DNA of 64,000 nucleotides from Raillietiella orientalis (Eukaryota). Both the position numbers and the translations under genes were made by a program. Location of the stretch: contig JAYWIR010000062.1 of assembly GCA_036172245.1 (NCBI GenBank), forward strand, positions 1 to 64,000. Direction: 5' to 3'. The stretch's first letter is position 1. Each line of letters starts with the position of its first letter. Below the pieces are notes generated by a model. It had not been told where the DNA came from, did no database searches, and was given only the letters and a program-made list of their open reading frames with translations. Shown here in pieces: positions 6,110-35,562 of this stretch.

Positions 6110-6200
6110 AAGCTACCTTGCCTAACCTTACCTTACCTAACACATACCTTCTTACCTAACCTAACCTAAGCTGAAATAACTTTACTTGACTTAACCTACC
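6110..6200 (-). repeat. Degenerate (TTAGG)n/(CCTAA)n microsatellite
   Basis: cctaaccttaccttacctaa ... acctaacctaacctaa. Confidence 0.7.
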
Positions 6201-6354
6201 CAAATAAACCCAGTTTCCTTTTGCGTATTGTAAGTGTGTCACTTGAAACTTCTTAATAAGATTTCTTCATTTCTTTTGTTTGCATTTTATTGTTTCATTT
6301 TAGTAATAAGCAGTAGAGTGTTAACGCGAGAAACTTCACTTTTTCCCTGCTTAC

Positions 6355-11878: not shown

Positions 11879-13130
11879 GCCGAATCCCCTGTCGAGTGGA
11901 CGTGTTTTTCCTTCGCTCTTCAGTGAGTCGAGAGGAAGCGGTTTTTTCTTCTGTTGTTTTTGGTGTGGAACATCGTTGGTGTCCGATGGCAGCGATGCCT
12001 GAGGACAACACGATGGAGGTAGGTGTGGGGGAGGCTTGCCCACCCCCACAGCCTACAGAATCAGGGGCGTCCACCCCGGAATCGCCCTCGCCGCCCAAGG
12101 CGAGGAGCTGGAGCGCCATGGTGGCCGCGCCGAGCGCGGAAACCGTGTTCGAGATGGCGGCCTACCGGGCAGCTGGGTACAAGCCCAGCTTGGTGTACCA
12201 GGTAGGCCCCTTATTTGACGGAAAAACGGCACGCGCGTTTTCGAAAGCGCTGCAAAACGCCGGAGTAAGAGAAGAAGATCTTGACGGTTTGTTCGTTCTC
12301 AGCGGAGGTCAGCGAGTCCAGGTGGTGTGCAAGGAGATCACCTTTGCTCAAAGTCTGATCACCAACCCGTTGAACGTCGACGGCCACAAGATCTTGCCGG
12401 TGATGATGGACCGCTCCGTGGTGGTCCATCTCACTGGAATCACGAGCCGTAAGACTCGCTCTGCGGTAGCACAAGAACTTCGAAAGTTCGGCGAGGTGCA
12501 CGCGCTGTCGCCTAAGCAAACAATCTTCGAAGGCTTTAATAGCCATTTTGGAGGACAGGCTGCAGCGCGGGTAACCGTGAATAAGGATTGTGGGCTTCCC
12601 CACAAGCTGGAGGTCGCGCAACAGAGCGTGGACCTCTGGTACGTGGGAAAGCCCCGGTATTGAGGCTACTGCGATACCGTAGGACACCTTCGCAAGAGGT
12701 GTCCTAACATCCAATGCCACATGTGCGGGGAGAAGGGCCACGTTCGACGTGTGTGCTCAAAACGCCCCACCTTGGTTACTCCTGCCGCGAAAAAGGCGCA
12801 GTTGAAACGCGCAGTGAAGGTTACAAGACCTGAGGCGGACGCTGGCCTGCAGAAGCTGCCAGATCCTCAACCTCCAAAAGATAAGACGGAGGATAAACCT
12901 TACCAAGAGGCGGAAGGTGAAGAGGGGTGGCAACTTGTAGCAGCCAGAAAAGAGAAAAAAGCTCCTTTAAAGGAGAAGAAAGAGAAGCCGGCCGGTAAGG
13001 CAAAAAAACCCGGGCCGCGTTCGAGAACCTTACGCGAGTGCACGGTGGCATTGGAACGTATCGTCGTTCCTGAAGATGCCACCCGGGGCGATGAGCCCCC
13101 CTCGCCGTTTCCGTCGCGCCCGAAGTTCGC
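11879..13130 (+). mobile_element. Subfamily G 5' part (5' UTR, ORF1), inserted at the GFG site
   Basis: GGACGTG at 11898, MAAMPEDNTMEV start, CCHC knuckles. Closely similar to 32375 onward. Confidence 0.9.
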
Positions 13131-14669
13131 CACGGAAACGGCGTCCCCTTACTCGTCCCTCCCACCCGTCCGTTGACAGGTGCTGCAACACCACGTTCCC
13201 AGCCTCAATGCCGGGAATCGCCTCTTGACGCCGTCTGCGAATTGCCTGTTGGAACGTCAAAGGGCTAAGCGACGACGGCAAGAGACGAGACGTGGCCTCC
13301 ATCCTAGCATCGTTCGACCTGGTGCTGCTGCAAGAGATCCACGTGATCTCCGCAGATCAAGCAACGGAGATCGAGCGTATCTCGGGTGGACGGCTGCTGT
13401 GGCGTGCCGGCACCGTTAAATCTTGCGGTGTCGCGTTCCTGCTTCGTCCAGCTGTCGAGGCTGCGGCAAAAGGCGTACGGTTCGATAGTGCCGGTCGCGT
13501 CGGGCAGTTGACCATCAGGTAGTCCGACTCCATCGATCTGGTCATTACCAACGTGTACGCCCCAAGCGGCAGCGACGCGCTAAGGGAAAAGGCAAGGAGA
13601 GATTTCTTCCTTACCGTGAGGCGCGAATATCTGGACCAAGCGGGAGTGCGCAAATCGCACCTAATTGCAGCTGACTTTAACCTGCGCCTGCTGTCAGGTG
13701 CGTCCGACACACTTCGGGACCGCGTGAACGAGCTGTGCGCAGAGATGCACACGCGCAACTTGTACGCGGGAGATCCGGAAATGGTTGACAGCATAGATCA
13801 CGTGTTTCTTGACCAGCACCTATGCTCACGCGTGGGCAGGCGCGGGAAGTTACCGTCGGAACTGTCGGACCATGACCGGATCGTACTCGAGGTGCGCCCA
13901 CGCGATAGGGGTCCGCCGTCATCTGCGTGGCGCTTACCGGGAGACTATCTGGAACTTCCGGAAGCCGCAGAGCATCTCCGCGGATTCATACGAGGTTTCA
14001 GCTTGCAGACGCTTCAGGACTGGGACCGCTTCAAGCGCTCGGTCCGGAATTTTTGCGACGAGTTCCCTATGAACCTCCAGCCTGCCGGGTTTGGTGAAAG
14101 CGTGCGTGACGAGAGATGGTATTTACCATCTCGATGTTACGCGCGAACACCAGACGTACGCAGGCTAGCCGAATACCATGCGGGAGCCGAGAGGCAGGCG
14201 TGGCAATCCGGGTCGGCCAGCTTACTGGACGACCAGGGTTCGGAGCACTCGGCCCCCGCCCAGGTAAAGGGCTTATTAAAAAAGTTCTACTCCTCCCTGT
14301 ACGCGCGCGCTTTACCGGAACGGGATGTCTCGCGACTTCTTCTTCCGGAAGGCGCTCCGGCGATCGGAAAGGAAGATAGAAAGACCCTCGACGAGGCTTT
14401 CACGATGGGCGAGATCATCTCGGCCATCGGAAAGCTCAAGAGGCGGAAGGCTCCAGGGGAGGATGGCCTGCCAGCGGAATTTTTTCAATGTTTCGCGGCA
14501 GAACTCACTCCTCTGGTGAAGAAACTCACCTTGCTGATTTGCGAAACGGGCGACGTCCCCGCCTCGTTTCGTCCGGCAAAGGTGCGTCTCCTCCCTAAGG
14601 AAGGAGACCTTCGGAGCATGAGCAACTGGCGGCCGATTACCGTGATAAATGCGGACGCCAAGTTGCTGG

Positions 14670-17600
14670 TTGCCACCCGGTCACGCAGGGCGTTTATTAC
14701 AAATTCTCTATGAATCGTGGCACGAGGCCCCACTACGGTCAACTCAGCTGGACCTGCCGGGACAACGGTACACAGACCGGCGCGACTCTCCTCGGCAGCC
14801 GAAGGGGATGGGGGAAAAAACAAAAAGAAAAATAAAACATAAAAAACAAAAAGATTTGGGAGGGTTGGGGAGGGATAACTCACCACTCGGAGGAAGATCC
14901 ATCCTTTGCAGGATGCCCTCGAGGTCCGTCCGTATAATTCCCAGGTGGGGCCATCTGGTCGCAATCCGCAGGTAGCGGACTGCCAGTACGACGGCATCCC
15001 TGTCGTGGCTCGGTCTTCTGACGTTGCTCCAGCACGTCACAATTTCGCGTACGCAGAAAAGTGCAGCCAGGGTAGCGGCTGGACGCAGGGCATCCTGCAC
15101 GAACAGAATCCGAAAAACGTCTCTGGGCTGGCTGCCCTCCTCGATCCGTAGAGAGGCACGAAGACGTTCCCACAGGGGTCGGAGGGCAGCACAATCAACA
15201 AGGAGGTGGGGGAGGGTTTCCCGTTCCCCACACCTGATGCAGGTAGGATCTACTCGACCCCTGGTCCAGTGGTGGCGGCGTGCGTTGCAGGGTAGACCCC
15301 AATGCAACAACAGAAGCGCCAACTCCTGCCACTTTAGGGGGAGGATCCTAGAACCAATTCATACCGGGGGCCACTTCAGGTCATCCGGCTGGATGCTAAG
15401 TAGCTCGCCCATCTCTGAAGTCCTCTCGGCTGGACACTAGGGGTAGTAACGTCCGCCAGTTCTTCCGTGTACCAGCCGCTTATCAACTTCTCCTTGCCTG
15501 CGATGCGGCAGGAGACTTGCCACCTAGGCTTGCGGCTGCTGGAGAGCGCCCTCCTCAGGAAGGGCATCGCCGTAGCTAGGGGGGTTGTCTCTGCCCACGT
15601 GCTTCTCGCGGTACACTGGAGTATCTTCCGCAGAGTGCAGCGGGAATAAGCGCCGCGTCGCAGGCAGTTCCACATTTCTTCATTCTTTTCATTAGTCTTC
15701 GCCCACGTGCCAGCTGTCTCTTTCAGCCATGCGGAGGAGTTGGCGGGGCTGCATACCATCCAGCCGTTTTCCTTAGCCAGGGTTGCCATGCGCCCCAGGA
15801 GAAGTCCGCATCTCTTGATCTTCCTGCCACGGCACAGAAGATAAGACGCAAGACCCTACGTCCCGGATACACGGCTGGCAAGGAGTAGAGCCGGAACGCA
15901 CCAAGGGGTGATCCATAACTTCGCTGCGATGGCGAGTGTTCGCCACCGCAGCTGACTCTCTACTCGCTCCATCGTCAAGATGCCGAGCCCGCCATCCCGA
16001 CGTGGAGCACACAAGTCCTTCAACGGGACTCGGGGCCTCCCTCTTCCCCAAAGGGCAATTCTCAGGAGGTTCTTCGTTCGTTTTTTCAACTCTCTGGGGA
16101 CAAGGCAAACAAAAAGCAGGGTGCTGAGGATAGGAGCCGCGAACGCGTTTCATACCGCGCCCCGTTCCGGAAGGAGAAACTTGTCTTCCAGGAACGGGCC
16201 GATCGCCGTTTCCACTTTTTGGAGGCAACCGGACCACGCTTCTGCAAGGGAGTAGTCCCCCAACGGCACACCAAGGTACTTCAAGCACCTAGCCGTGGGG
16301 ATCCTCAAGCGGACCCAGTCCTGCTGCTCAGCCCACGCCGCACCGACTGGAACCACCGTCGACTTCGCCCTGTTCACCGTAAGTCCGGTCCCGCGGCTAA
16401 GCAGATCGAAGAAATCCACGATCGCCTTCGCCGGGGTGGACATCGGCAACAGAAGCAAAAGATCGTCGGCGTACGCTGCTACGGCGGGCGTGCCGGGGCA
16501 CGAGCTCGGCAAGGGGGCCAAAGTCACCCTGTACGCTCTCAGCACCAACTCAAAGTAAATGCTAAAGAGCAGGGGCCTGAGGCTGTCGCCCTGCCGTATG
16601 CCCCGCCGTACCTGCACGCCGTACGCCATTTGACCTCTGAAAGAGATATTGATCAGCGCGCTGCGCCAGCAAGGGCGCAGGTAAGTCAGTAGGGAGGGAG
16701 GGAAGCCCATGCGTCCCAGGAGCTCCAGCAGAAGATCCTGGTCCACGCATTCAAACGCTTTATCCAGATCGATTGCTATCGTTAGGGCCCCCTTCCCCAC
16801 CTGGAAGTCCTCTCCCTGCCCGGCTGACGCTTCCAAAGCGGGGCTGCCAATCGTTCCGTCCTTAATTTCTCGACTACTCTGCACATGAAACCATTTGCTC
16901 GCGAAGAAGAGGTTGGCCTCCATACTTCGCCCGGGAACAGCGTAAGTCTGCTCCGGGCTAATTATGGAATTGGCCACCTGCCCCAGACGCGAAGCCCACA
17001 GTCCGGCGAACAGCTTGGCGTTCGTATTCACAATTGAGATCGGACGCCAGTTGCTGAGTTTCCTGAGGTCTCCTCCTTTCGGAAGGAGCCTCACTCTGGC
17101 TGACCGAAACGAGGCGGGTACATCGCCTTCATCTCGGATCAGCCTTGTCAACTCAAGCACCAGGGGTGCCAACTCTGCCGCGAACCATTGAAAAAACTCC
17201 GCGGGCAGGCCGTCCTCCCCTGGTACTTTCCGTTTCTTGAGCCTTTTGATACCGGCGAGAAATTCGCCGGTGGTAAAAGGCTCGTCGAGGCTTTCCTTCT
17301 TCTCCTCTCCTATTGCCGGGGCACCGTCCGCAAGCAAGCGCCGAGAGGCATCTTGGTCCGGGGGCGCCCTGGCGTAAAGGGAGGAATAATAACGCCGCAC
17401 GAGGTGTGTATTCTAGCCGGAGCCGAGTGCTCCCGGCCCTGGTCGTCCAGCAAGCTGACCGATCCGGATTTCCAGGCTTGACGTTCGGCCCCGGCTCGGT
17501 ACTCTGCCAGGCGACGGACATTTGGGGTCCTCTTGTAACGGCGGGCATACAAGTACGCTCGTTCGTAACGGATACTCTCCCCGAATCCACGGGGCACGAG

Positions 17601-20516
17601 GTGCAAGGGGAACTCCTCGCAAAACTCGCGGACAGAAGCCTTTAAAAGGTCCCAATCAGCGAGATTGCGAAGGGTGACGCCTCTCAAGAATTCGCGAAGG
17701 TGTTCCTTCGCAACTGAGAGTCGCGTCCAGTCCCCAGGCAGACGCCACGCCCTGGATGGGGGGCCCTTGTCGCGCGGGCACACCTCGAATATCAACCGAA
17801 AATGGTCAGACAGCTCCGACGCAACTTTCCTCCGTTTGCCGAGCCGAGAACACAGGTCGACATCCAGGAAGACGTGGTCGATGCTCCTGACCATTTCCGA
17901 AAGATCCCCTAACAAGTTGCGCGTGCGCATGACGGCGCACAACTCGTTAGCCATCCGTTCCTGTGCGTGTGGCTCACCTGATAGCAGGCGGAGATTAAAG
18001 TCTTCCGCTATCAGGTGAGCCACGCGCACGTTCGCTTCCACCAGCCAGTCGCGCTTCAGGGTTTACAGGACCGCCTCACGTTCCTGGTACCTGGTAGGAC
18101 CGCTCGGAGTGTACACATTTGTTTCGACGAGGTCGATCGTGTCGGACCACTTCAGAATCAGCTGGCCGACACTTCCTGCTTCGTCGAAGCTCACACCCTT
18201 CACGGCTGCGTCGACTGCCGGCTTCATAAAAAACGCGACGCCGCAGGTGTATCGCGTGCGCATTGCCACATTAGACGCCCCCCTGCGATCTTTTCGATCT
18301 CCTGGGCGTTCTCCGCGGTGATCACGTGGATCTCCTGCAGGAGCGCCAGGTCGAAGTCACGCAGGGTGGCGGCCGTGTCCCGTCTGTTGCCGTCGTCGCG
18401 CAGCCCGTAAACGTTCCAGCAGGCCACGCGTAATGGACGGCGACACGCGAGCCCAGATGTTACTCCTGGGAAAGTGACAATGGGGCGCCGCCAACTGGTC
18501 GGGCGGGACGGAGGGAGGAATGGGATCACTGTTCACCGGTACTCCCTCCTCAATGGGGGCTGATTCCTCGGCGGACCGCAACGTTGAAGGAGGCGGGTTT
18601 CACGCACGTGCTCCCCCTCTTCCATGGGGGCCGATTCGTCGACTGCGCTGGACGGCAGGGGGGAGCAGTTGTCAGCTGTCTGCTCCCTCTCCTCCTTGGC
18701 TATCTCCTGAACAGGTTCCACCGTTGGGAGGGGGCGGCAATCACTCACCTTATCCCCCTCCTCCATGGGGGTCGCCAGCTGCTCGGTAGCGGAGGGTGGG
18801 AAAATCCCTCCCTCCGTTCCCACGCTGCTGGCTTCCCCCTCGGTTGCCGGTGCGTCCCCCTCCTTCTTTGTCGGGATGCGCCTCTTGGGATTTTTGGACT
18901 TCCGTCCAGTCTTCTTCGGAGGCGCCTCCCCGGAAGACGCACTTCCGGCATCCGGTTCGTGGTCACCTGTCGGAGGGGCCTTGCTCGCGGCCGGCCTTCG
19001 CAAGGCCTTTCGCGCTCCGTTCTCACGCTCCGCGAGTTGGGCCGCGAGCTCTTCCGCCGCCTGCTGGAAGGCGGCGTCCTCGATTACGGCGAGCGCGTCG
19101 CTCGGTTCCCCCTCTGTTTGCACAGAGGGTTCGCCTTTCTCGATCGCGGCTTCGGCGTCAACGAGGCGGGAGATATCTCCCCCGGTGGAGGTCTCGGGGA
19201 TCTCCACGCGCTCCAAAGCGACCGAACATTCGCGGAGCAAAGCGCGGCGTTGCCTTCTATTTAGAGAAGTTGTCGCAAGTTGCGCTGTCGGTTCTTCGGT
19301 TTTTCGGCTTTTTTTACTTTTCGGGTTCGCTGTCCGCCAGTCCTCGTTGTCACCAGCGTCGTCGGGAGTTTTCTCGACCGCCGTTTGCTGGGAGCTTTCG
19401 GACTCTGGCTTTTTGCTTGGCCTTTCCTCGGCTTCAGTGGTCTTGCTTGTTTTCTCCAAGCGTTTTCTCTTACCTTTTTTCAAGGCACAGGGCGCTGGAG
19501 GTTCCCGCTTTGAGCACACTTTTCGGAGGTGGCCCTTCTCCTCGCAGTGAAAACACTGGATGTGAGGGCACCGTTTTTTCAGGTGCCCTGTTGCATCACA
19601 GTGCCTACAGTACTTGGGCTTGCCCACGTACCAGACGTCGACGACCTCGTTGCCGACGTCGAGTTTGTGGGGCAGCCCACCGTTTTCATGGACGGTCACA
19701 CGCGCTGCAGTCATGCCACTGAACAGTCTTCCGTAAGTTTGGAAGAAGTTGGGCTTGGTCCAGAGCGCGTGCACCGTACCATGTTTCTGCAACTCTTCCT
19801 GCACGCCAGCTTTTGTCATGCGCAGAGTTACACCGGTAAGGTGGGCAACAATGGAGCGGTCCTCCGTTACAGGGAAGACCTTCCGGCCTTCAAGAGTGAT
19901 GGGAGTGTTCAGCAGGCGTTGATTCAGACTTGCATTTTCGCAAGTCAGCTCCACCCGCTGGCCCTTACTCATCACGGAGAGACCTTCCAGATCTTCCTCA
20001 TTGACCTCCAACCGCTGTAACTCTCTTTCAAAGTAACCAGCGGTGTTCCCCACAAACAGGTTTCCTACCTTGTAAATCAAGGACGGCTTGTATCCTTGTT
20101 CCAGGTAGGCCCGTTGTTCTGCTAAGGCAGCAGGAGATGGCGCTGCAGCCACGGAGCTTCAGGACTTCGTGAATGGAGCAGGTGGATCCAAGGACGCGGT
20201 TGCTCCCTTTTTCAAGGACGCGGTTGCGCCCTTTTGCACGAGGACGGTTGCTCCCTTTTTCAAGGTGGCGGTAGCCCTCGTTTCCATAGAGGCGGTTGCC
20301 CCCTTTTTCAAGGAAGTGGTTGCCCTCTCCTCCGTGGGGGCGGTTGCCCCCACCTCAATAGGTTGGGGAGAGGAACAATCCTCTCCCCCGCCGACTTCCA
20401 TCGCGGTGTCCTCAGGCATTTCTGCCATTGGACACCGCAGATGCTCCACACACAAACACTAACGAAAAGGAACGCTTTACAAAAGGCGCAGAGAAGCGCG
20501 GAAAAAAAACGTCCGC
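14670..20516 (-). mobile_element. Full-length subfamily A Tx1-like element (5.85 kb), frameshifted
   Basis: Perfect 15-bp TSD acgccaagttgctgg (14655-14669 and 20517-20531). ORF1 ~20428-18460, ORF2 with EN, RT (AYADDL) and zinc finger, 3' AATAAA-hairpin. Confidence 0.95.
20189..20350 (-). repeat. 24-bp tandem repeat (~6 degenerate units) in A ORF1 N-terminus
   Basis: Unit approximately aaggacgcggttgctccctttttc, encoding KKGATASL-like octapeptides. Confidence 0.8.
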
Positions 20517-22853
20517 ACGCCAAGTTGCTGGCGAAATTGTGGGCTGAACGCCTGGGGCGGTTAGCGGAAAGCTTCATTAGCCCGGAGCAGACATATGCTG
20601 TTCCCGGGCGGAGCATGGATACTAACCTGTTCCTCGCCTGCACCTTTTCCCGGCTCCAACAGGAAAGGGTCAGGATGGGCAACCTGACTTCCGGAATGTC
20701 CACCGCTAGGAAACGGGATGGTTGGGGAGGGGAGGGAGCCCTCGCAGTCGCAGTCGATTTGCATAAAGCATTCGACTGTGTCGACCAGAGGCTCCTCCTG
20801 GAGCTCCTGGAACGCTTGGGCTTCCCTGTCTCTTTGCTGACCTACCTGCGATCCTGCTGGCGCCACGCGCTCATCCAGATTCTTTTTCAGTGGACACACC
20901 GTGCACGGCGTACCGGTGCGACGCGGCATACGGCAGGGAGACAGCCTGAGTCCCTTGCTCTTCAGTACCTACTTGCAGTTTGTACTGAGAGCGTACACGG
21001 AAACTCTAGCGCACCTGCCGCGCGACTATCCCGGTACGCCCGCGGTGTCAGCATATGCGGACGACCTACTGCTGCTGCTCCCTATGTCCACCCCGGCATC
21101 GGCGGTCGAGGAGTTCTTCGACCTGCTAAGTCGGGGAATCGGGCTTGAGGTGAACAGCGCGAAGTCGTCCGTCATGCCAATCGGTGCGGCGTGGGCAGGG
21201 CAGCCGGACTGGGTCCGTTTAAGGATCCCCACGCTACGGTACTTCAAGTACCTCGGTGTACCGATGGGTGATTATCTCCCTTCGGATGCGTGGTCCAGCT
21301 GCCTTCAAAAGGTAGAGACGGCGATCTACCCGTTCCAAGGCCGCAGGTGTTTCCTGCCGGAACGGGCCGCGGTGTGGAACGCATTCGCGGCGCCCCTCCT
21401 CCGTTCCCTGCTTTTTGTTTGTCCTCCCACCACAGAGACTAAAAAGCGGACGAAGGACCTCCTAAGGATTGCCCTGTGGGGTAATGGGAGGGCCCGAGTC
21501 CGGCTGGATGACTTGAGCGCTCTGCATCGGGAAGGCGGTCTCGGCTTCCTGACGCTAGAGCGGCTGGAACCCCAGCTTTAGTTTCGGTTAGTCGCCCTAG
21601 TGGCGAAATATTGGAGTAGCAGTTGGTGCGAGCCCGCACGTCTCCTCGTCGAGCAGGCCACAGGCAAGGTGGGACTGTCATCCTTTCTAGCGCTCCGTCG
21701 GCGCCGCCAAGTCGGTCACTGTGGGTTGCAGCTACGGAGAGTGGCTGACCTGATGAGGAAGAACGCAGGATGGCTCTGCTGTCGCCCCGTTAACGGACCT
21801 GCATAGCTGCAGGAAACGGTTCAGACGTGGGCGAGGAGCAACCAGCAACGCATCCAAGAAGGGCAGAGACAATTCTTCGCTCGTAATGACCGCCTGACGC
21901 TCCGGGAGGTCCTTGAGAACCCCCAAAAACGAGCGTGGGCAAGAAAAACTCCCCTCGCTGCAATGCTGTTTCCGTTCGCGGAACATTTAAACGGCAACAC
22001 TGCTGCGAAATGGGATGTTTTCGTCAAAATCTCCGGTACAGAGAAAAAGATCGGGGAATGTAAAATGGGAATTCTCTGCGATACCGCGGCCCGGACTACC
22101 ACCCCTATTGGACTTTTGCGCTGGGACGAGCTGCTAAATGTTCCGCGGGAACACTTCAAGTGGCCTTCGTTGCTGATGAACACCTCCACCCTCCCCTTGA
22201 AATAACAGGAGTCGGCGCTATTGTTGCTGCATTGGGGACTCCCCTGCAACGCCTGCCGGCACCATTGGACCTGGGGAGCGGTAAGCTCTAATTGTGCGAG
22301 GTGTGAAGAACGGGACTCCCTCACTCACCTCCTTTTTGATTGTGTGGCACTTCGGCCCCTTTGGAACCGTTTTGCCGCGGCAATCGGTAACCCTTGTGGC
22401 AACCCCAGAGACGCAATCAGATCCCTCTTCGTTTGCGAAGCCCTTCGGCCCTCGGCCGCGTTAGCAGCTCTGTGCTGCTTTCGCGGGATCGTCGCTGCAT
22501 GGAGCAAAGCAACGGGAGGACCTCGCGATAAGGGTGCCGTCCAGTGCGCAGCCGAATTTATGCGGACGGCGACAGGATGGAACCCTGTGGATTCAAACAT
22601 CCAAAAACAGCTTGCCGTCATGCTGCAAAGGATGTAACGGCCACACAGCAGACTGTGATCCCTTCCCGTGCCCCCCAGATCTTGATTTTATATATTTCTT
22701 TTCTTTGTTTTATTTTTTGTTTTGTCCTTGGCCCCTCTGCTGTCGTGGTGGACCGTGCCGCAATACGAACCGGTGACCAGGCAAGCTTAATTGTGTATAC
22801 CAGTGCGTGGTCGGACCACCTGGTCAGCCACCAACGTTTGTTTTATTCCAAAG

Positions 22854-22881
22854 AATAAACGCCCCGGCGCAACCGGGTGAA
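22854..22881 (+). terminator. Conserved 3' terminus: AATAAA plus CCCGG-loop-CCGGG hairpin (example of ~12 copies)
   Basis: aataaacgccccggcgcaaccgggtgaa. Same architecture at 3594, 7165, 10471, 14670, 23865, 31517, 35532, 46989, 53645, 56991 and 62087. Confidence 0.8.
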
Positions 22882-23864
22882 AATCGAGCTCACTTATGGC
22901 AAAGCCGAGGAGGTACTGGAGAAGATGCTCAGCCGCCTCCGGGTGGCTTAGCCAGTCTGCCGGCATCCTCCAAAAACAGTTTGGAGGCCCCTTGCCTGGC
23001 GGGAGCAACTCGAACTCGAGCCTGTTGTGGTCTGAAAGCACGGACGGCACGGGACCTCTCCGACCCACTCGACAGAGCAAGTGTTCATCAAGGTATACGT
23101 GGTCCGGCGTTGCTGCCATAACAGGGTAGCTAGCAAACAAGTTGTACGCGTGCACGGACGCGCACATTTCTTCCGCTAGCAACTTTTCCCTTTTGTGGGA
23201 TCTATTCTCGGAAAGCAGGTGGACGTTGAAGACCCCCGCAATGAGATGGGCCACAGTAGGGTGAGATCGAGTGAGCCACTGGCTTTGAAGGTTACCGAAG
23301 AACTCAATCCTTTCGGCCCATCGTCCAGCACCGCTCGGCGCGCACACGTTGGTTACGACAAGGTCGATCGAGTCGGACCACTTGAGTACAAGGTGTCCCA
23401 CTCGGACTTCCGTGTCGAAACGAACGCTGCGCACCGCTCCCGCCAAAGTTCCTCGCACGAGGAAAGCGACGCCGCACGTACGTGCAACGCCGCATCTATA
23501 AAGTAGCGTTCCGCCCGCGCGCCGTTCGATTTCGGCAGCCTGCTCTCCGGAGATGCTGTGAATATCCTGCAGGAGCGTCAAGTCGAAGGCGCGCAGAGCG
23601 CGAGCCACTAGTCGCCTCTTCTCCTCGTGTTGGAGCCCGTTGACGTTCCAAGACGTCACGGCAACACGACGAGAAGACGCGATTGCCCTCATCACGGCTG
23701 GGAAAGTGAGGCGAGCATCACGAGGCCGTGGTGCTCGCCTCACCCGGCGAGCGGGCAGAAAGCAGCACGTCGGGCTGGAGGGCGCGGTCGCCACCGGCCT
23801 CAACTGTGCTGCACGTAATCGAGTGCTCCTCCCCGGGTGCAGAACCTGTGGGTTCCGGGGTCAG
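22882..23864 (-). mobile_element. Outer element O, part 3: ORF1 tail and EN up to the DW site
   Basis: TGATG stop/start at 23694-23690, then MRAIASSRRVAVTSWNVNG...SDH...LLGFAISELD. Confidence 0.85.
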
Positions 23865-25962
23865 TTTTCACCCGGATATGCCGGGGCATTTATTTAAAAT
23901 AAACAGAAGCGCAATACATTATCGAGTGGAGAACCCGAGGGTTCACCACACCAAAACAGCTTGCTGGCTGCCGGCACTATGCCGGCGAGGTCTTTCCAAT
24001 GCGCGGGGGTTGGGAAAGAAAAAAACAAAAGCAAACAAACAGTTGAAATGTGGGAGGGAACAAATGTTTCAGGGGTGGGAGGGCAGGGAAGGGATCACTG
24101 TGCGCGGGGATAGGTCCTCTGGATCCTATTCAGGATCCGGACAAGCTGAGTCCTCTCTGCGCCTAAGTGGCGCTACTTGCAAACAGCTCGCACGAATAGG
24201 CGAGTGAAACGTAAGGCGTTGCCAGTTGGCTGACGTCTCCTCCTGGTGGCGCTACAAGCCGCCACGATCCCTCGAATGCAGCAGAGGACTGCTACAGAAG
24301 CTGGTGGGGACAAGGCGTCACGACAGAAGAGGCGCCTGAGAACGTCCTTAGGGCCACATCCGCGCAAATCCAGGATCGCCGCAACGCGATCCCATAAAGG
24401 GCGGATGGCACCACACTCCAGAAGAAGGTAAGAAAAGGTCTCTTTTTCCCCGCATGGTCGCACTGGGGATCCACAGCTTCCCGGGTTGAGTGATACAGGC
24501 GTGCTTTACAGGTAAGCCCCAATGTATTACAAGCAACGCCACCTCCTGCCATTTAAAGGGGAGGGATCCACTGTTCCAGGACGCAGGGGGCCACTTCATA
24601 TCCTCCGGAGATACTCCGAGTAGCTCGCCCCAGCGTCGAATTCCGTTGGGCGGGACACTCGGCGTCGCAGCGTCCGCTAGCTGCCGAGATGTCCACGCCT
24701 TTATCGGTTGTGTCCTGCCGCCAATGGTGCAGGACACGGTCCTTTCCCCAGCTTCCTACTGTCCCTGGCGTTTATTAGGAAGGGCAGCTCTGGGGCAAGG
24801 GGGGTCATCAGGGCCTACATAAGTTTATCGTGGGACTGCACGATCTCCTGCAGTTTCCAGCGGGCGTGCCTTTTTAGGCAAGTGTTTCTTGTGCCCGCCG
24901 GAACGTGGATCTTTATCCAGGTGGACACTGACTCGTCCAGCCATGCAGAGTAGTTCCCTGGGAGGCAGGAGATTCAGGCGTTCTCCCGTACCACAACGCA
25001 CATGCGACGCAGGAGAAAGCCGTTTTGTGCTTCTCTGCAATCGCGCTCCAGCAGAAACGACAACAGTCCATCGAATCCGCAGGCTCGTTGGGCCAGGAGG
25101 CGTGCTGGAACGCACTAAGGCGTGTCCTACAATTCTGCCGCGAGGCCGAGAGTCCTAAAGCGGAGTTGTAATTCCATGCGCTCCAGCGTAAGTACGCCAA
25201 GTCCTCCGTCCTTACGTGGAGCGCACAAGTCTTTGAGCCTCACACGGAACCTCCCTTTGCCCCAAAGGGCTGTCCTCAGGAGGACCGTTGCCCTTTTTCG
25301 GATAAAATAGGGGGCGAGGCACACAAAAAGTAGGGGGCGAAGAAGATGAGCCGCAAACGTGTTCCACACCGCGGCTTGTTCCTGCAAGTAGAACTTGCTT
25401 TCTTGGAACGGAACGATCGCCAACGCTACCTTTTGGAGTCCATCGGACCAGACTTCTGCTGCGCAGAAGTTACTCAACGGAACACCAAGGTACTTGAAGC
25501 ACCTGCCCGTGGGGATCCCCAAGCGGATCCAGTCCGACCGTCCATCCCACCCCGAGCCAACATACACCATAGACGACTTCGCCCTGTTCACCTCCAGGCC
25601 AGTCCCACGGCGCAACAACTCGAAGAATTCCTCGAGCGCACTCGCCAGGGTGGACCCGGAAAGCAGCAGCAGAAGATCGTCTGCATAGGCCGACACAGCA
25701 GGTGTGCCGGCACACGAGCTCGGCAGCGTTGCCAGAGTTACCCTGTATGCCCTTAGCATTAACTCGAAGTAGATGCTGAAGAGCAAGGGGCTCAGGCTGT
25801 CACCCTACCGGATGCCGCGGCGCACGGGCACGCCGTACACGTGCCGGCCGCTGAAACAAATATTAATAGACGCGTTGCGACAGCAAGAGCGCAGGTGAGA
25901 CTGGAGCACGGCCAGGAAACTCATGCGTTCCAGGTGCTCCAGAAGGAGATCCTGGTCGACAC

Positions 25963-25996
25963 AGTCGAATGCCTTGCGTGCTCCAGGGTGGACGTG
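25963..25996 (+). promoter_or_regulatory. Putative Inr plus DPE core promoter (example; equivalents at 48916-48949, 1564-1531 on minus, 57097-57130)
   Basis: CA(+1)GTC with GGACGTG starting exactly 27 nt downstream. Confidence 0.55.
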
Positions 25997-28945
25997 TTTT
26001 CTCGGTGCTCCTCGTGCCAGGAAGTATCCCCCAGTGCAAGCGTCGTGTGGTTCGGTGGTCGATCAGGCAGCGATGCCTAACGCGACCACCAGGGATGGCC
26101 AGGGGGCAGCGGCATCGCCGCCCCCAGAGGCGATATAGAGCCAGGGGGCGGCGGCAACGTCGCCCCCAGAGGAGAAAGAGGTGGGGGCATCCGCTCGCAC
26201 AGAATCGGTCCCCGCTGCAGCGCGGGCGTGGAGCGCCGTTGTGTCGGCGCCATCGCCTGCAGCCGCGGCGGAATTGTCGGCCTATGTAGAGGAGGGGTAC
26301 AACCCCTCATTGTTCTACAAGGTAGGCAATTTATATTCTTTAAAGAGCACGCGCGCCTTCTCGAAGGGCATGCGCGCTCTCGATGTGAAAGAGGAGGAGC
26401 TCAGAGCTATGACCATCCGCAGCGGGGGTCAGTACGTTAAGGTCATCTGCAAACAAGCAGAGCTGGCCCAACGACTGCTTAAAACCCCCGTGGTGATGGG
26501 GACGCGCAGGCTCCTCCCTATTACGACGGACCGCAGCATGGTGGTCCACCTGTTAGGTGTTACCCCGCGGATGCGCAAGGAACAGGTTCGCGCTGCGTTG
26601 GAGGAATATGGAACGGTCCACGCGCAGTGGACGAAAGTTAGTCCTTTCGAGGACTACACGGAGCAGCAACACGGCCTCACTGCTGCGCGCGTGACCGTTC
26701 GGGAGGGCTGCACTCTTCCCCTCAAACTGGTGGTCGAAGGCGGAACCGTCGACCTCTGGTATGTGGGGAAACCGAAATACTGTGGCTTCTGCAATACGTC
26801 GGGCCACCTCAAAAAGAGGTGTCCCAATGTGCAGTGTTAAGTATGCGGCACAATGGGCCACACGAGCGAGGTGTGCCCAAAAGCAGCAGTGCGGGTGGTT
26901 TCCGAGAGAAACCTTAAAAAACGCGCTCGGCTTCTGCAGAAAAGGCTGGCGGCGAAAGCTGCCGCGAAGGCTGTGCCACCCGCGCCCAAGACCCAGGCCG
27001 CACCCGAAACCCCGACGACCAACGCCGAAAAAGTTGAGGGAGCCGGCCAGGAGACTGGGTGGCAAGTGGCAACGGCCAAAAAATCAAAGAAGGAGAGGAG
27101 GATGGAAAAGAAAATCGCCTACCAACAGAAGAAGAAAGAGCAGGGTAGCGCGATAATTAAAGAGTGCAGCGTCGTTGTCGAACGCGTTCTCGATGTTGCC
27201 GAACGCTGTCGGAAAGAACTCGCCGCTACCGACGACCTCCCCTCTGTTGACACTGTCAACAGCGAGGGCAGCGAGCCGGCGGCGGCGTCCGTCATCGACA
27301 CCACCATCGATGACGTAGCCTTCGCGCGAGCCGCGGAGGAGCTGGCAGCTTTGTTGCAGCCAGAACCCCCCAAGGCTGGCAAGAAGGCCGTAAGGCGTCC
27401 GGCCTCCCCACAGGAGTTTCCCACTTCCGACACCGAGGAGAAGGCGGGAAGCGCAGCCTCCGTTTCCACGGCACCGCGCAAGAAGCCTGGACGTAAGACC
27501 ACAAAGCCAAGGAAGCTCGTCTCCCCCGTCGAATGGGAAGAGATGGCTTCCGCAAGCGAGGGTGCCATGAGCGTGGGAAACTCTCGAGACCCGTCGCCCG
27601 AGAGAATCCCACGCTCGGACACGGAGGGGATGGAGGGGGTGGAGGCCGAACAGGTGCCTCAGGTGCCTCAGAAGGCCGAAACCCCCATGGACATCCCGCC
27701 CGCCTCGCAAGAGGAGAGCTCCCCAACACCTCAATCTTCCCAGCAGTAATGCCGGGAATGTCCACCCGCCGTCGTCTGCGCATCGCCGTTTGCAACGTGA
27801 ACGGCATGACAGACGCCGGCAGGAGACGAGACATGGCCGCCCTTCTCGAGTCCTACGACCTTGCGCTGCTGCAGGAGATCCACGTGATCTCTGCAGAACC
27901 AGCGCAAGAGATCGCACGGATCTCCGGAGGGCGGCTATGGTACAGGTGTGGGAGAGCGAAAAGTTGCAGTGTCGTCTACCTGCTTCGGCCAGCCATCGAG
28001 GCCGCGGCTCGGGGCGTACGGTTCGACAATCACGGTCGTGTCGGCCAGCTGACTCTCAGGAGGACCGACTCGATCCTTCTGATCGTCACGACCGTGTACG
28101 CACCGAGCGGCAAGGACCTGATGAACAGGAGGGCGAGGAAAGTGTTTTTCCTTGCCCTCCGGCGAGACTGGCTGACCGAAGCATGCGTGCGGAATGCCCA
28201 TCTGGTTGCAGGCGATTTCAACGTTCGCCTGAAACCAGATGAGCAGAATGCCGAGCGTGACCTGGTCAACGAGGCGTGCATGGCGGTGCACACCTGTAAT
28301 TTGTTGGCCAGTGCACCGGCGATGGAAGACAGCATTGACCACGTGTTTCTTGACAAGCACCTGTGCCCTCGCGTGGGCAGGCGCGGCAAGTTACCGTGCG
28401 AGCTGTCCGACCATCGCCCGCTAGTCGTCTAGATCCATCCGCGCGACAGGGGCCCCACCTCGTCAGCGTGGCGTTTCCCAGGGGACTGGCTCAAGCTCCC
28501 GGACGCGGCGGAACATCTCCGCACGTTCATACGGAGCTTCAGGCTGCGGACATTCCAGAATTGAGACCGCTTCAAGCGGTCGGTCCAGGAGTTCTGCGAC
28601 CAGTTCCCTCTGAACCGCCTACCTACGGGTTTTGGGACCTGGGTCCGTAACGAACGAGCCTATTTGCAGGCCCGTCGTAACGCCAGAACCCCCGACATCC
28701 GCAGGCTGGCGGAATACAAAGCGGGAGCCGAGAGGCAAGCCTGGTAGTCCGGATCGGCCACCTTACTAGAAGATCAGGGCCAGGAGCACTCGGCACCTGC
28801 CCAAATCCGCGGCCTGCTGCGGAGTTACTACTCCTCCCTGTATGCCAGGGCACCTCCGGAGAGGAACGTCTCACAACTCCTGCTTCTGGAAGGCGCTCCA
28901 GCGATCGGGGAGGAGCAGAGAAAGACCATCGACGAGCCTTTCACG

Positions 28946-30940
28946 ATGGACGAGATCCTTTCCGCCATCGGAAAGCTCAAGAGGCGAAAGGCTCCAGGGG
29001 AGGACGGCCTGCCCGCGGAAGTTTATCAAACTTTCGCGGCTGAGCTTACTTCCCTGGTACAGCAACTCACCTTGCTGATACGCGAAACAGGTGACGTTCC
29101 CGCCTCGTTTCGTTTGGCAAAGGTGCGGCTCCTACCTAAGGGAGGAGATTTGAGGAGCATGAACAACTGGCGTCCCATCAGAATAGTGAATGCGGACGCC
29201 AAGTTGATAGCCAAGATGTACGCAGAACGTCTGGGACGAATTGCCAACATCTTCATCAGCCCGGAACAGACATATGCTGTTCCCGGGCGAAGCATGGAGG
29301 CGAACCTGTTCCACGCTTCCACCTGGCTAGAGCTCCAACATGAAAGGAGCTGGGTGCGCAGCCGGAATTCCGGTGCGTGCGCCGGCAGGGGGTTGGATGG
29401 TCGGGTGGGAAAGGGAGCCCTTGCGGTCGCAATCGACTTGCGAAAAGCATTCGATTGCGTCAACCAGAATCTCCTTCTGCAGCTTCTGGAACGCTTGGGC
29501 TTCCCGGCCTCATTAGTGGCCTATCTGCGCTCCTGCTGGCGTGACGCGCTCATCAATGTTACTTTCAGCAGGCAGACCTTGCACGGCGTGCCGGTGCGGC
29601 GTGGGATCCGGCAGGGAGACAGCCTCAGCCCCTTGCTCTTCAGTACCTACTTTGAGTTGGTACTGAGAGCGTACAGGGGAACTCTGGCGCACCTGCCGCA
29701 CGACTGTGCCGGTACGCAGGCCGTTTCAGCGTACGCGGACGACCTTCAGCTGCTGCTCCCTATATCCACCCCGGCTGCGGCGGTCGAGGAGTTCTTCGAC
29801 CTGCTGCATCGGGGAACCGGACTTACGGTGAACAGGACGAAGTCGTCCGTGATGCCAGTTGGTGCGGCGTGGGCAGGGCAGCAGGACTGGGTCCGTTTGG
29901 GGATCCTCACGGTGAGGTACTTCAAGTACCTTGGTGTGCCGTTGGGGGACTACTCCCCTGCGGAAGCGTGGTCCGGCTGCCTTCAAAAAGTAGAGACGGC
30001 GATCGGCCCGTTCCGAGGCGGCAGGTTTTTCCTGCCTGAACGGGCCGCGGTTTGGAACACGTTCGCGGCTCCTCTCCTCCGCCCCCTGCTTTTTGTTTGC
30101 TTCCCCACAGAGAGGATTAAAAAGCGGACAAAGGACCTCCTCCGTATCGCCCTTTGGGGCAACGGGAGGGCCCGAGTCCGCTTAAAGGACTTGTGCGCTC
30201 CTCGTCGGGATGGTGGTCTGGGCCTCCTGACGCTGGAGCGGCTGGAGCTTCAGCTCCAGTTCCGCTTGTCGGCACTCGTTCCAGAGTTGTGGTGCACCTG
30301 TTGGTGCGTCCCTGCACGTCTCCTTCTCCAGCAAGCCACCGGCAAGACGGGACTGACGTCGTTTCTTGCACTCCGTCGCCGCGTCAACCGATGCGGACTC
30401 CAGCTACGGAGGGTGGCTGCGCTGTATCGGAAAAACCCAGGATTGCTCACCTGTCGCCCGTTTAACGGTAGTGCCTGGTTGCAGGAAACCGTTCGAACGT
30501 GGGGACAGTTCGGCATGCAACGCTCCCAACAGGAACGAAGGTTCCTGTTTGGGGGTTACAGAAGTTGCACGCTCCGCGAGATCCTGGAGGATCCAAAGAA
30601 GAGAGCGTGGGCAGGAAGAACCTCTCTCGCTGCTGCGCTGCCGTCTCTGATGGAAGATCTGGACAGCGATGTTGCGGCGAAGTGGGTGGTTACAGTAACA
30701 ATCTCCGGAAAGGAGAAGAAGAAAGGAGAGTGGAAGACGGGACAGTTAACAGACGCTGCCACCCCGAGTACGCCTCCCAATGGACTTCTGCGCTGGGGCG
30801 CGCTGCTCGATGTTCCCATTGAACATCTGAAGTGGCCCCCGGTGCTCATGAACACTTTCTCCCTCCCCTTAAAATGGCAGGAGTCGGCTCTCCTGTTGCA
30901 GCACTGGGGACTCCGCTGCAACGCCCGCCGACACCACTGA
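28946..30940 (+). pseudogene. Longest open RT segment of K ORF2 (664 aa)
   Basis: KAPGEDGLP, WRPI, DLRKAFD, GIRQGDSLSP, YADD, KYLG motifs. Bounded by premature stops. Confidence 0.9.
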
Positions 30941-32374
30941 ACCTGGGGAGCGGTAGACCCCAATTGCGTCAGGTGTGGGGAACGGGAGTCCCTCTTCCAC
31001 TTGCTAGTGGATTGTGTTGCCCTTCGGCCCCTTTGGTTTCGCTTTGCCGCGGCCATCGGAATCCCCTGCGGCAACCCCAGGGAGGCACTGAAAGCCGTAT
31101 TCGTTGCCGACGCCCTTCGGCCAGCGCCCTCGTTAGCAGCTTTGTGCTGCCTACGCGGGATCGTCACCGCTTGGAGCAAGGCTACGTGAGGACAACGCTA
31201 CCAGGGTGCCATCCAACCAGCCTCCCAGTTTCTGATGAGGGCGTCCCGATGGCTCCACCTGGATCCAGGAATACAGAAGGAGCTTTCCGGCATCCTGCAA
31301 AGAATGCAACGGCCCCACCAGCAACTGTGATCCCTTCCCTTACCCTACCAACTTTTCTTTTTCTTTTTTGTTTTGTTTTTGGTTTTTTCCCCTTCCCCCT
31401 TCTGCCGTGGTGGACCGTACCGTTCTGCGAACCGGTGACCCGGCAGGCTGTGTTTCTTCTTGCGTGGCTGGAGCAATGGTTCAGCCACCGCACGTCTTTG
31501 TAAAAGTTTATTTTACAATAAACGCCCTGGCGAAATCCGGGTGAAAATCAAATGCTTTGTGCGAATCGACCGCGGAGGCAAAGGCTCCCGCCGAGTCCAT
31601 CCCACCCTCTGCTTGATCTTCTTGGTCAGTGAGGAGTGCGAGGCTCCCTTGACTATCCTGTGCAACGCGTTGTCGCAACTGCCACCATGAGCTGGCGAGG
31701 AGCAGGTTGGCCTCCATGGTTCGTCCGGGAACAGCATAGGTCTGCTCGGGACTCACCACGGAAGCGGCCACCCGCCTCAAACGCTCAGCCCACAACTTGG
31801 CATACAACTTTGCGTCCGCATTCACTACTGTGATGGGACGCCAGTTGCCAATGTTGCGTAAGTCTCCTGACTTCGGCAGGAGACGTACTTTAGCTGACCG
31901 GGACGAGGCGTGAACTTCGCCGTGTTCGCGGATCAGCGTACATAGTCTGAGCATCAGGGAGGCCAGCTCTGGCACGAAGTGTTTGTAAAACTCCGCGGGC
32001 AGGCCGTCCTCTCCTGGCGCCTTCCTCATCTTTAGCTTGCTGATGGCGCAGATGATCTCCGTCAGAGTAAACGGTTCCGCAAACCTGAAACGATCCTCCA
32101 CCATGAGCGCGGGAGCACCATCCGGCAACAGGCGCTGCACGAAATGGCGCTCAGGTGTTAGGGGCCCGTACAAGGAGGAATAGAACTTCCGCACGATGCA
32201 GCTTACCTGAGCTGGGCTGGAGCGTTCTTGGCCCTGATGGTCCAGCAAACAGGCTGAGCCTGACTGCCAGGCCTGCCTCTCCGCCTCAGCTTTGAATTCT
32301 GCCAGGCGACGGACGTCGGGACGCCTGGAATAACGGCGGGCCTGAAGGTTTGCCCGCTAGTTCCTGACTCCCCT

Positions 32375-35300
32375 GCCGAATCCCTTGGCGAGTGGACGTG
32401 TGTTTCCTTCGCTCCCGAGTGAGTCGACAGGAAGCGGTTTTTCCTTGTGTTGTTTGGTGTGGAACATCGTTGGTGTCCGTTGGCAGCGATACCTGAAGAC
32501 ACCACGATGGAGGTAGGTGTGCAGGAGGCTTGCCCACCCCACAGCCTACAGAATCAGGGGCGTCCGCCCGGGAATCGATCTCGCCGCCCAAGGCGAGGAG
32601 CTGGAGCGCCATGGTGGCCGCGCCGAGCGCGGAAACCGTGGCCGAGATAGCGGCTTCCCGGGCAGCTGGCTACAAGCCCAGCTTGGTGTACCAGGTAGAC
32701 CCCTTATTTGATGGAAAAACAGCACGCGCGTTTTCGAAAGCGCTGCAAAACGCCGGAGTAAGAGAACAAGATCTTGGCGGTTTGTCCGTTCTCAGCGGAG
32801 GTCAGCGAGTCGAGGTGGTGTGCAAGGAGATCACCTTGGCTCAGACTCTGATCACCAACCCGCTGAACGTCGACGGCCGCAAGATCTTGCTAGTGACGAT
32901 GGACCGCTCCGTGGTGCTCCATCTCACTGGAATAACGAGCCGTATGACTCGCTCTGCGGTAGCACAAGAACTTCGGAAGTTCGGCGAGGTGCACGCGCTG
33001 TGGCCTAAGCCGTGTGTGCCCAAAACGCCCCACCCCGGTTCCTCCTGCCGCGAAAAAGGCGCAGGGGAAACGCGCACTAAAGGTCGCAAGACCTAAGGCG
33101 GACGCTGGCCGGCTGAAGCTGCCAAATCCTCAACCTCCAAAAGAAAAGACGGAGGATAAACCTTCCCAAGAGGCGGAAGGTGAAGAGAACTGGCAACTTG
33201 TAGCAGCCAGAGAAAAGAGGAAAGCTCCTTTAAAGGAGAAGAAAGAGAAGCCGGCCGGTAAGGCAAAAAAACCCGGGCCGCGTTCGAAAACCGTACGCGA
33301 GTGCACGGTGGCACTGGAACGTATCGTCGTTCCGGAAGATGCCACCCGGGGCGACGAGCCTCCCCTAGCCGTTTCCGTTGCGCCCGAAGTTCGCGACGGC
33401 GAACCCTCTGTGCAAAGAGAGGGTGAGCCGCGCGACGCGCCGGTAGAAACCGAGGACGCCGCGTTCGCAAAGGCGGCGGAGGAGCTCGCGGCCACGCTGG
33501 CGGAGCGTGAGAACCCCTCACGCAAGGCCGTGCGAAGGCCGGCTCCCGCGAAAAAGGCCCCAAAAGGTGAGTCAGACCTGGGGGCCGGAAGCACATCCTC
33601 CTCCTCTTAGGCACCCCCCAGGAAGTCGGGACGCAAGTCCCAGAAACCCAGGAGGCGCCTCCCCTCCACCAGCGAGGAGGAGAAGCAGGAAGCTAGCGGT
33701 AACGTGGGAATCCCGGAGGGGGAACTCCCACGCTCGGAAGCCGTCGAGCCGTCCACCCCCATGGAGGAGGGTGAGCAGGGGGGCGAATTCCTCCCTGCAG
33801 TCGCCGAGCCTGAACAGCGCGCCATCATGGAGGAGGGCCAACAGGTAGGCGCGACCCCACCTGAGGGTGACCCGCTCGACGCGCTGTTACCCATGGAGGA
33901 GGGGGACCAGATGCACGCAGCGCCTGACCCTCCTCCTTCACATAGCGTACCGCACCAACAGGTGGCGGACGCCGCATCGCCATCTTTTCAGGAATAACAC
34001 CTGGCCTCGCCAGTCGCCGTCGGATTCGCGCCGCCTCTTGGAACGACAACGGGCTGCGTCACGACGGTAACAGGCGAGATACGACCGACACCCTGCGTGA
34101 GCTCGACCTGGCCCTGCTGCAGGAGATCCACATGATCACCGCAGCAGACGCCCAGGAGATCGAGACGATCGCGAGGGGTCGGTTGTATTGGCGGTGCGGC
34201 CTCCGCAACACCTGCTGGGTCGCGTTCTTCGTGAAGCCGGCCATCGACGCTGCCGTGAAGGGCGTGCGCTTCGATGACGACGGTCGGGTCGGTCAGCAGA
34301 TTCTCAGCTGGTCCGACTCGATCGAATTGATCGTCACGAATGTGTACGCCCCCAGCGGTAAACAGGGATACAGCGACCGTACCAGGCTGCTGGATTCCCT
34401 GAAGCGCGACTTGCTGGGGGACACAAACATGCGGAAGGCTCACCTGATAGCGGGAGATTTCAATCTCCGACTGCTAACAGGTGAGCTAGAAACACAAGAG
34501 AACGCGATGAACAAGTTGTGCGCCGCCATGCGTGCGCGCAACTTGTTCGCGGGTGAGAGTGGAATGGTCCGCAGCATCGACCACGTCTTCCTCGGCGCTG
34601 ACCTGTGTTCACGGGTCGGCAAACGGGGGACGGTTGCGACCTGCCTTGCTACGGCGCTGCCCTTCCTGAGAAGGGCACTTCACTGCAGCCGGACGCCAAG
34701 GTGGCAAGTCTCCTGCTTCATCGAGGGACTCGAGAAGTTGACAGCGGCTGGACAACAGGAGAACTGTCCGACGCCACGACCCCGAGCGTCCAGCCGCGAG
34801 GATTATTAAGATGGGGCGAGCTGCTCGCCATCCCCAGGGATGAGCTGAAGTGGCCCCCGGTGATGACGGAATTCAGGATCCTGCCCCTCAAGTGGCAAGA
34901 GTCGGCGTTGCTTTTGCTGCACTGGGGTCTACTCTGCAACGCGCGCCCCTTCCACTGGACTAGGGGAGCTGTGGATCCTGCGTGTGCCACGTGCGGGGAG
35001 CAGGAGTCGCTTCCCCACCTTATTGCGGATTGTGCTGCCCTCCGACTCCTTTCGGAACGGTTCGGGACGACCCTCGGGCTCCTTACGGGCAGCAATCCCA
35101 GAGACGTTCTTCGGCCCCTCTTCGTGAAGGACGCACTGCACCCAGCCGCAGCCATCGCAGCCTTGTGCTGCGTCCGTGGCATCGTGGCGGCATGGAGCGA
35201 CGCCAACAACGAAGGAGTGGGTCCACAGGTGAGGGAAGTCATCCCGTATGCCCAACGCTTCTTGCGAAGAGCTGCCGGATGGTCCCAACTGGGGAATATG

Positions 35301-35562
35301 CAGACTGACCTCGAGGGCTTCGTTCGACTGATGGGCCCTCCCCACAGCGACCACTGATCCCTTCCCTGCCCTCCATCTTATTTTTGTTTGTTTCTTTTTA
35401 TTTTTCTTTTTGTCTTATCCCCATCCCCCTTCGCTGTCGGGGAGTGCCACGCCGGGCTGCGTCCCGGTGTCCCGACAGGTCGCGTGTTTACGGCCGTGGT
35501 GGGGCTTCGTACCACGCATGTAGAGTTTACAAATAAACGCCCCGAGCGTACCCGGGAGACAA
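32375..35562 (+). mobile_element. Subfamily G element with both termini, internally deleted (ORF1 knuckles and RT lost), at the GFG site
   Basis: Deletions near 33011 and near 34638. 5' GGACGTG at 32394, AATAAA at 35532 plus hairpin. Both flanks are antisense GFG codons. Confidence 0.9.

Follow-up and report, generated by a model that had tools for sequence, protein, structure and literature searches.

The stretch analysed here, 64,000 nucleotides (nts) of contig JAYWIR010000062.1 from Raillietiella orientalis (assembly GCA_036172245.1) and called the window below, is throughout a nest of related long interspersed nuclear elements (LINEs) with an apurinic/apyrimidinic endonuclease (APE) and a reverse transcriptase (RT). 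Exo_endo_phos and RVT_1 domains were found in its long open reading frames (ORFs), and CCHC knuckles in ORF1-like frames. One of these LINEs, K, is present in three copies, each inserted antisense in the RT gene of another LINE. We examine here its 5′ junction with the host gene, which lies on the following features:

25980–31545 (3′ end ambiguous to 31547), forward strand: K1, a LINE of full length (about 5.57 kb) with ORF1, then APE endonuclease and RT, and a 3′ end composed of AATAAACG, a stem-loop and GGGTGAAAA, without poly(A).
48933–50274, forward strand: K2, the initial ~1.4 kb of K, inserted antisense at the corresponding site of host E2, with A48916 and GGACGTG at 48943–48949.
1211–1547, reverse strand: K3, the initial 337 nts of K, inserted antisense at the corresponding site of host T3, with A1564 and GGACGTG at 1537–1531.
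25960–25966, forward strand: CACAGTC in host T1, initiator-like and antisense of Asp-Cys codons, with A25963 27 nts before the motif.
25990–25996, forward strand: GGACGTG, 10 nts inside K1, the start of a conserved block (GGACGTG, a T-rich stretch, GCTCC).
25963–25979, forward strand: 5′ copy of the K1 target duplication, 15–17 nts, with five transitions and no other difference from the 3′ copy over 17 positions.
31546–31562, forward strand: 3′ copy of the K1 target duplication, where host T1 resumes.

K1 matched Exo_endo_phos (E = 1e-10) and RVT_1 (E = 6e-23). No CCHC match was obtained in K1; the sister element E1 carries one. The 5′ boundaries of K at 25980, 48933 and 1547 were placed by alignment with four uninterrupted RT copies, and the host homology ends 10 nts before GGACGTG in all three. 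Because the K bodies are 93–96% alike and the hosts T1, E2 and T3 only 69–72%, the copies represent three independent insertions at one site and in one orientation. With the same position and orientation in 3/3 and both APE and RT domains present, K is a site-specific APE-type LINE. Its 5′ junctions are uniform (3/3), as are those of another family of the nest, G (2/2). The reverse complement of the K flanks translates as ARKAFDCVD (K1), AHKAFDCVH (K2) and AHKAVDCVN (K3); the KAFDC codons that the first-pass annotation had placed at all three sites are thus present at K1 and K2, whereas the K3 host reads KAVDC.

The base located 27 nts upstream of GGACGTG is the A of ACAGTC at K1 and of GCAGTC at K2 and K3, and the exact 27-nt spacing previously noted holds for 25963/25990, 48916/48943 and 1564/1537. 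As the three copies occupy a single target site, they were counted as one data point for spacing. GGACGTG matches the published downstream element of insect LINEs at 7/7 positions. According to PMC4748587, this heptamer, with its CGTG core, is the downstream promoter element (DPE) of jockey, Doc, G, I, F, SART1 and TRAS1 and keeps a fixed position of +28 to +32 relative to the start; it is also treated as such for insect LINEs in PMC1636488 and PMC1874656. Read from the sequence, the K geometry is exactly the canonical arrangement of an initiator (Inr) at +1 and a DPE at +28.

We infer from this layout that the heptamer acts as a DPE and that the host provides the start. K is a site-specific, endonuclease-bearing LINE that integrates antisense at one position in the RT gene of other LINEs of the same superfamily, and its extreme 5′ end would carry the downstream core-promoter element GGACGTG, followed by the T-rich stretch and GCTCC. 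RNA polymerase II would start about 27 nts upstream of this element, which in K would be the A of CAGTC in the host flank, antisense of the host Asp-Cys codons. The start would be situated at, or at most 2 nts from, the beginning of the 15–17-nt target duplication. A transcript begun there would have a short target-identical leader at its 5′ end. Annealing of this leader to the target could yield the uniform 5′ junctions observed, and after reinsertion at the same site the leader would be indistinguishable from the duplication. We assign a start in the flank a probability of roughly 40%.

The conservation of the motif across families bears directly on this proposal. RGACGTG-like motifs had been noted 2–20 nts inside about 12 element 5′ ends. 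We found the motif, or a variant of it with one or two mismatches, at twelve ends (K1–3, D, G1–3, E1, T1, Z2, A and W1), at mapped distances of 0–10 nts, and 26 nts in A. Beside the K copies, the ends discussed most below belong to the following elements:

23865–25979, reverse strand: 3′ part of host element T1, which continues at 31546–32384 and 35563–38196 and has its own GGACGTG at 38186–38180.
57119–61532, forward strand: element D, with GGACGTG at 57124–57130, ~5 nts inside the boundary; the flank 57023–57118 is host E2 and contains CCAATC with A57097 at −27.
32385–35562, forward strand: G2, antisense in T1 at P-R-G-F-G codons, with GGACGTG at 32394, ~9 nts inside the boundary; the base at −27 is the A of TGACTC.
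14670–20516, reverse strand: E1, full length, antisense in G1, with a perfect 15-nt duplication and GGACGTT 2 nts inside the boundary; C at −27 and A at −26.
7768–10462, forward strand: element A, with the degenerate motif GGAGGTA at 7794, 26 nts inside; host CCAG ends at 7767, and CAGTC straddles the junction at −28.

Exact RGACGTG was present at 9/12 ends, the other three reading GGACGTT, GGAGGTA and GGACGCA. All twelve ends, which come from at least seven diverged families, share a block consisting of GGACGT(G/T), a T-rich stretch and GCTC, whereas the remaining sequence of their 5′ untranslated regions diverges. Eleven ends have a mapped boundary, and the motif lies 0–10 nts from it in ten of them and 26 nts in A; W1, at the left end of the window and with a variant motif, was left out of this count as its boundary is not fixed. 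By family, the block begins ~0–2 nts from the boundary in Z2 and E1, ~5 nts in D, 8–10 nts in G, K and T1 and 26 nts in A. Over the whole window RGACGTG showed no enrichment (22 occurrences against 16.8 ± 4.4 expected, 14 of 100 shuffles reaching 22). Eight of the ten GGACGTG copies in the window are located at 5′ ends.

A motif at 0–10 nts from the boundary is too close to it for an initiator inside the element; therefore, if the motif works as a DPE, a start 27 nts upstream must fall in the flank. The internal geometry of jockey-type elements, where transcription starts at the element's own first base and the motif lies at about +28 to +34, was found in element A only. There the boundary precedes the degenerate block by 26 nts and abuts CAG, which is the ordinary internal layout. 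This supports a putative start about 26–28 nts upstream of the block. Given the conservation of the motif at the extreme 5′ end and its closeness to the boundary, it seems reasonable to place the start in the flank.

How well the flanks fit an initiator was assessed by a positional test on ten 5′ ends, each independent junction being represented once. An A occupied −27 in 6/10 (K1, D, G2, G3, T1 and W1; binomial p = 0.009), and no other offset between −45 and −11 had A in more than three ends. CA was found at −27 in 3/10 ends (p = 0.02), CANTY in 2/10 (p = 0.0015) and CAKT in only 1/10. For a TCAKTY-like initiator 27 nts before the motif, K gives an exact CAGTC in its host flank. The CCAATC of D, for which the same spacing had been claimed, is indeed found with it (57097/57124), and its CAATC would fit moderately. 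The other ends appear poor or one nucleotide off, as at 7766/7794, where the spacing is 28 as noted before. Only K would thus fit well.

A number of observations weigh against a start in the flank, and the first concern this test. The enrichment at −27 is fragile: without G3, whose junction is aberrant, and W1, with its variant motif, A is found at −27 in 4/8 ends (p = 0.07), and when K and D, the cases that generated the hypothesis, are also removed, A remains in 2/6 and CA in 0/6. The −27 base is G in G1 and in Z2, and the A is displaced by one position in E1 (−26) and in element A (−28). Moreover, G1 and G2 share one host site yet carry G and A, respectively, at −27.

A second set of observations comes from the 3′ junctions. 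The 3′ end of every element consists of AATAAACG, then an inverted repeat (CCCGG...CCGGG), TG and a tail of 4–6 nts of GAAAA or GCAAC type, without poly(A). These 3′ ends were located at 22854, 31517, 35532 and 53645 and, on the reverse strand, at 23894, 10501, 14698 and 47017, and the type of tail goes with the type of target site. K1, G1b and T1 share the terminal GGGTGAAAA, and the T1 duplication begins only after the fourth A. Since the K1 tail ends in A's, the host may resume at 31546, 31547 or 31548, and this ambiguity of 0–2 nts in the 3′ end gives a duplication of 15–17 nts. The same ambiguity affects the earlier statement that the putative initiator A matches the first target base after the K and D 3′ ends. 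In addition, the D position used for it, 22882, belongs to G1, a G/D-like recombinant, and not to the D copy at 57124.

The K1 3′ junction reads GGGTGAAAA-TC... and falls on the same pentamer as the putative initiator. Similarly, the 3′ end of G1, in its D-like half, reads GGGTGAAAA-TC... beside a host Asp codon, where the D flank has its homologous CCAATC, and both 3′-junction sites are antisense of GAY-TGN codons. Counting further against the flank start, CARTC at the K-type and D-type 3′ junctions may therefore be the endonuclease nick site, in which case K and D do not provide independent support for an initiator. The distance from CARTC to the block is nevertheless 27 nts in both families although it is split differently, 17 + 10 in K and ~22 + 5 in D, the 22 of D being deduced because its own 3′ end lies outside the window. 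An equal sum made of different parts would speak in favour of a constraint on spacing.

A further difficulty is raised by the proposed leader. The 17-mers beside K1, K2 and K3 differ at 3–5 of 17 positions while the K bodies are 93–96% alike. Strict inheritance of a 17-nt leader was accordingly rejected, the copies in the window differing at 5, 3 and 4 of 17 positions against ~0.7–1.2 expected. Within K1 itself, four of the five transitions that separate the two copies of the duplication are synonymous in the host RT frame. Because only ~0.7 differences were expected (p ~0.0007), this mismatch is not explained by the age of K1. Decay of CpG type, or of the type of repeat-induced point mutation, was likewise discarded as the cause, since transitions and transversions between copies are about equal. 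Among other duplications, that of G2 has one mismatch in ~10 nts, that of T1 a mismatch and an indel in 13, and that of E1 is perfect (15/15). Unequal copies would follow if the 5′ copy were taken from the parent RNA, or from ectopic recombination or conversion between elements, events of a kind that do take place in this nest, as the mosaic G1 described below illustrates.

Empty host sites were seen in contigs of a public DNA run, as was one further K 5′ junction (25951–26065). Its flank equals that of K1 from at least 25958, which is upstream of the proposed start, and the sequence beyond the matching part resembles another RT lineage. This matching flank could be a carried leader, native host sequence or the result of gene conversion.

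The last point against the proposal concerns the class of the element. The heptamer had been taken as a DPE of jockey/I/F type, and its sequence is indeed identical to that element at 7/7 positions; the nearest named RT relatives, however, are L1/Tx1-like at 25–30% identity, and not jockey, I or F. RT protein searches returned one metagenome relative at 69% (P0024) and otherwise matches of at most 29%, to fish, plant and fungal LINEs. Several of the latter carry the zf-RVT domain of L1/Tx1-type elements, and a feature search gave a Tx1-named cluster. The zf-RVT domain was not detected in K itself, and a metagenome scan with the RT alignment yielded three loci at 25–30% identity, with no close relative and no junction among them.

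These observations have to be weighed with other explanations of the layout. It is quite possible that the 27-nt spacing is a coincidence and that GGACGTG belongs to an ordinary 5′-terminal control element. Transcription would then start at or near the element's first base by means of a factor bound to the GGACGTG block, comparable to human L1, where a YY1 site positions the start near the first base, and CAGTC would be the nick site contained in GAY-TGY codons. The ACGT core of the motif is a common transcription-factor site. The coincidence of CARTC with the K-type and D-type 3′ junctions agrees with this explanation, as do the single CAKT among the ten ends, the lack of signal in the six ends left after removal of K, D, G3 and W1, and 17-mers that are target-like and not inherited together with K. 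A factor fixed at the boundary, however, would not lead one to expect a distance between boundary and motif that changes with the family, from 0–2 through 5 and 8–10 to 26 nts. The complete identity with a published DPE also argues against it, and so does the sum of duplication length and offset, which is 27 in both K and D.

Alternatively, the block could act at the level of RNA or cDNA without being a promoter, as a 5′ protein-binding site, a site of second-strand priming or a processing site for read-through transcripts, with expression driven by outside promoters. Signals for integration would be expected at the outermost part of the element, and the position of the block there suits such a function; site-specific LINEs such as R2 are described as relying on co-transcription and 5′ processing (PMC3774820). 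We consider it improbable. No ribozyme or other Rfam family was found at the K 5′ end (25940–26260, E up to 10), where the search returned chance-level rows only, and the K 5′ region folds no better than shuffled sequences (z = −1.57); a 5′ ribozyme is therefore not supported, a novel one being possible. Besides, the elements lie antisense in their hosts, so that read-through from a host gives the wrong strand. Finally, copying of a single event by segmental duplication of host and insert, which the flanks alignable across the junction could suggest, is refuted as an origin of the three K junctions, as the hosts are of different families, far less alike than the K bodies and alignable only because all are RT genes.

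With the start in the flank, the target would complete a split promoter, as the first-pass annotation had proposed. The canonical geometry of K, the heptamer and its conservation at 5′ ends argue for this claim, while the presence of a good initiator in K only, the fragile enrichment and a CARTC that is possibly the nick site argue against it. That such a promoter selects for site and orientation specificity is speculation. Less probable than the flank start itself is an extension to the whole nest. At least six LINE families would each home to their own codon block in the ORF2 of the others, almost always antisense, and would have core promoters straddling the junction, the element supplying the downstream element and the antisense of GAY-TGY, read as RCARTC, supplying the initiator. 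The leader would guide 5′ joining, and only copies at the cognate site and in the cognate orientation would be transcribed and propagate.

A host-supplied initiator would add a variant to the LINE promoters already known to depend on the target. The Drosophila LINEs jockey, Doc, F, I and G have the same RGACGTG heptamer with its CGTG core and, as far as K is concerned, the same spacing from A(+1) to +28 (PMC4748587, PMC1636488). They differ in that the start is the element's first base and the initiator internal, whereas here the position of the initiator is in host DNA and the RT was not found near the jockey/I clades by the searches run. TRAS1 and SART1 of Bombyx are also site-specific APE LINEs with a downstream CGTG/CGTT motif involved in transcription, according to PMC4748587 and PMC1874656. 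Their target is the telomeric repeat, while that of K is the coding sequence of another LINE. TRAS1 transcription reportedly starts at or in the upstream telomeric repeat, which, if correct, would make TRAS1 the closest precedent for a start provided by the target.

In HeT-A, transcription begins in the 3′ end of the upstream neighbour, an arrangement termed 'promoting in tandem' (PMC1636488). There too promoter function is governed by the sequence found upstream of the inserted copy, but the whole promoter is contained in the upstream element of a head-to-tail array, whereas in K only the initiator would come from upstream, and from an antisense host gene. The RNA of R2 elements whose ribozyme cuts upstream in 28S retains as many as 36 nts of the target sequence preceding the element, a feature that PMC3774820 associates with uniform 5′ junctions. 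Uniform junctions are shared by K and G; the R2 leader, however, results from co-transcription and self-cleavage and not from a promoter of its own, and the Rfam search described above found no ribozyme at the K 5′ end. Zepp and ZeppL of green algae, as presented in PMC8226300 and PMC3446292, are GC-rich LINEs in which insertion into copies already present builds nested clusters. The present elements resemble them in GC content and in nested insertion. Zepp clusters are tandem arrays of mostly 5′-truncated 3′ ends, whereas most of the elements studied here are full-length, and they occupy fixed codon positions, in 13/15 cases antisense.

If the flank start is correct, the element's expression would be tied to its having integrated correctly, and copies inserted off target or in the wrong orientation would be left without a full core promoter. 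Strict specificity for site and orientation would thereby have an explanation in selection, and promoter architecture would be connected with 5′ joining, a step of LINE integration that is still poorly understood. Regardless of the promoter, the LINE families of this window are parasites of one another's reverse transcriptase genes, at fixed codon positions.

For the inventory of the nest, the full-length K1 (25980–31545, forward strand) served as a ruler and each segment was mapped by K1 position and strand. Fifteen orientable host-guest pairs of nested insertion into existing copies were identified, and in 13 the guest is antisense (hand tally; two-sided p ~0.007). The exceptions in sense orientation are T1 in M and the 5′-truncated Y in G3. 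At least four recurrent insertion sites were recognized in LINE ORF2, each used by one family, at K1 positions ~3462–3477, ~3214–3227, ~2648–2657 and ~2565–2581. The K site corresponds to K-A-F-D-C codons (3 junctions), the E site lies ~240 nts upstream of it (2 junctions), the G site corresponds to P-R-G-F-G codons (4 junctions: G1, G2, G3 and B) and the D-type site to A-D-W-D codons (2 junctions).

Signs of recombination were observed in the G family. G1 (11890–14669 and 20517–22883) is a mosaic, with a first 1.2 kb that is 92% like G2 and a D/K-like remainder. It joins the host at the G site on its 5′ side and at the D site on its 3′ side, and ~70 nts of host are missing. Host E2 carries G3 and D in tandem at these same G and D sites, 96 nts apart (57023–57118), which suggests that G1 arose by recombination between neighbouring or tandem G and D insertions. 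The 5′ end of G3 (50262–50289) abuts ORF1 of K2 and not its cognate site; the remainder of K2 together with a portion of E2, ~5 kb in all, has been lost, and the junction falls within a microhomology between K and the 5′ block of G3.

No RNA genes were found by an Rfam scan of the whole window. GC content is 0.58–0.62 within elements, against 0.43–0.49 in two short stretches: 3300–7250, without any ORF of at least 200 aa, and 61600–64000, with one 354-aa frame (62273–63337) that has no Pfam match. A more divergent LINE, Z, with CCHC, APE and RT, occupies 38700–44200 (forward strand); nucleotide comparison of it with K gave no match. Adjoining it at 44257–45670 (reverse strand), Z2 represents the 5′ portion of a further element, which lies antisense in a K-like copy and has AGACGTG at its very end. 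G2 has an internal deletion at 34638/34639, where the K1 position jumps from ~2426 to ~4641, and its relative G3, at 52586–53674, holds the sense-oriented, 5′-truncated LINE Y near the region that G2 has deleted.

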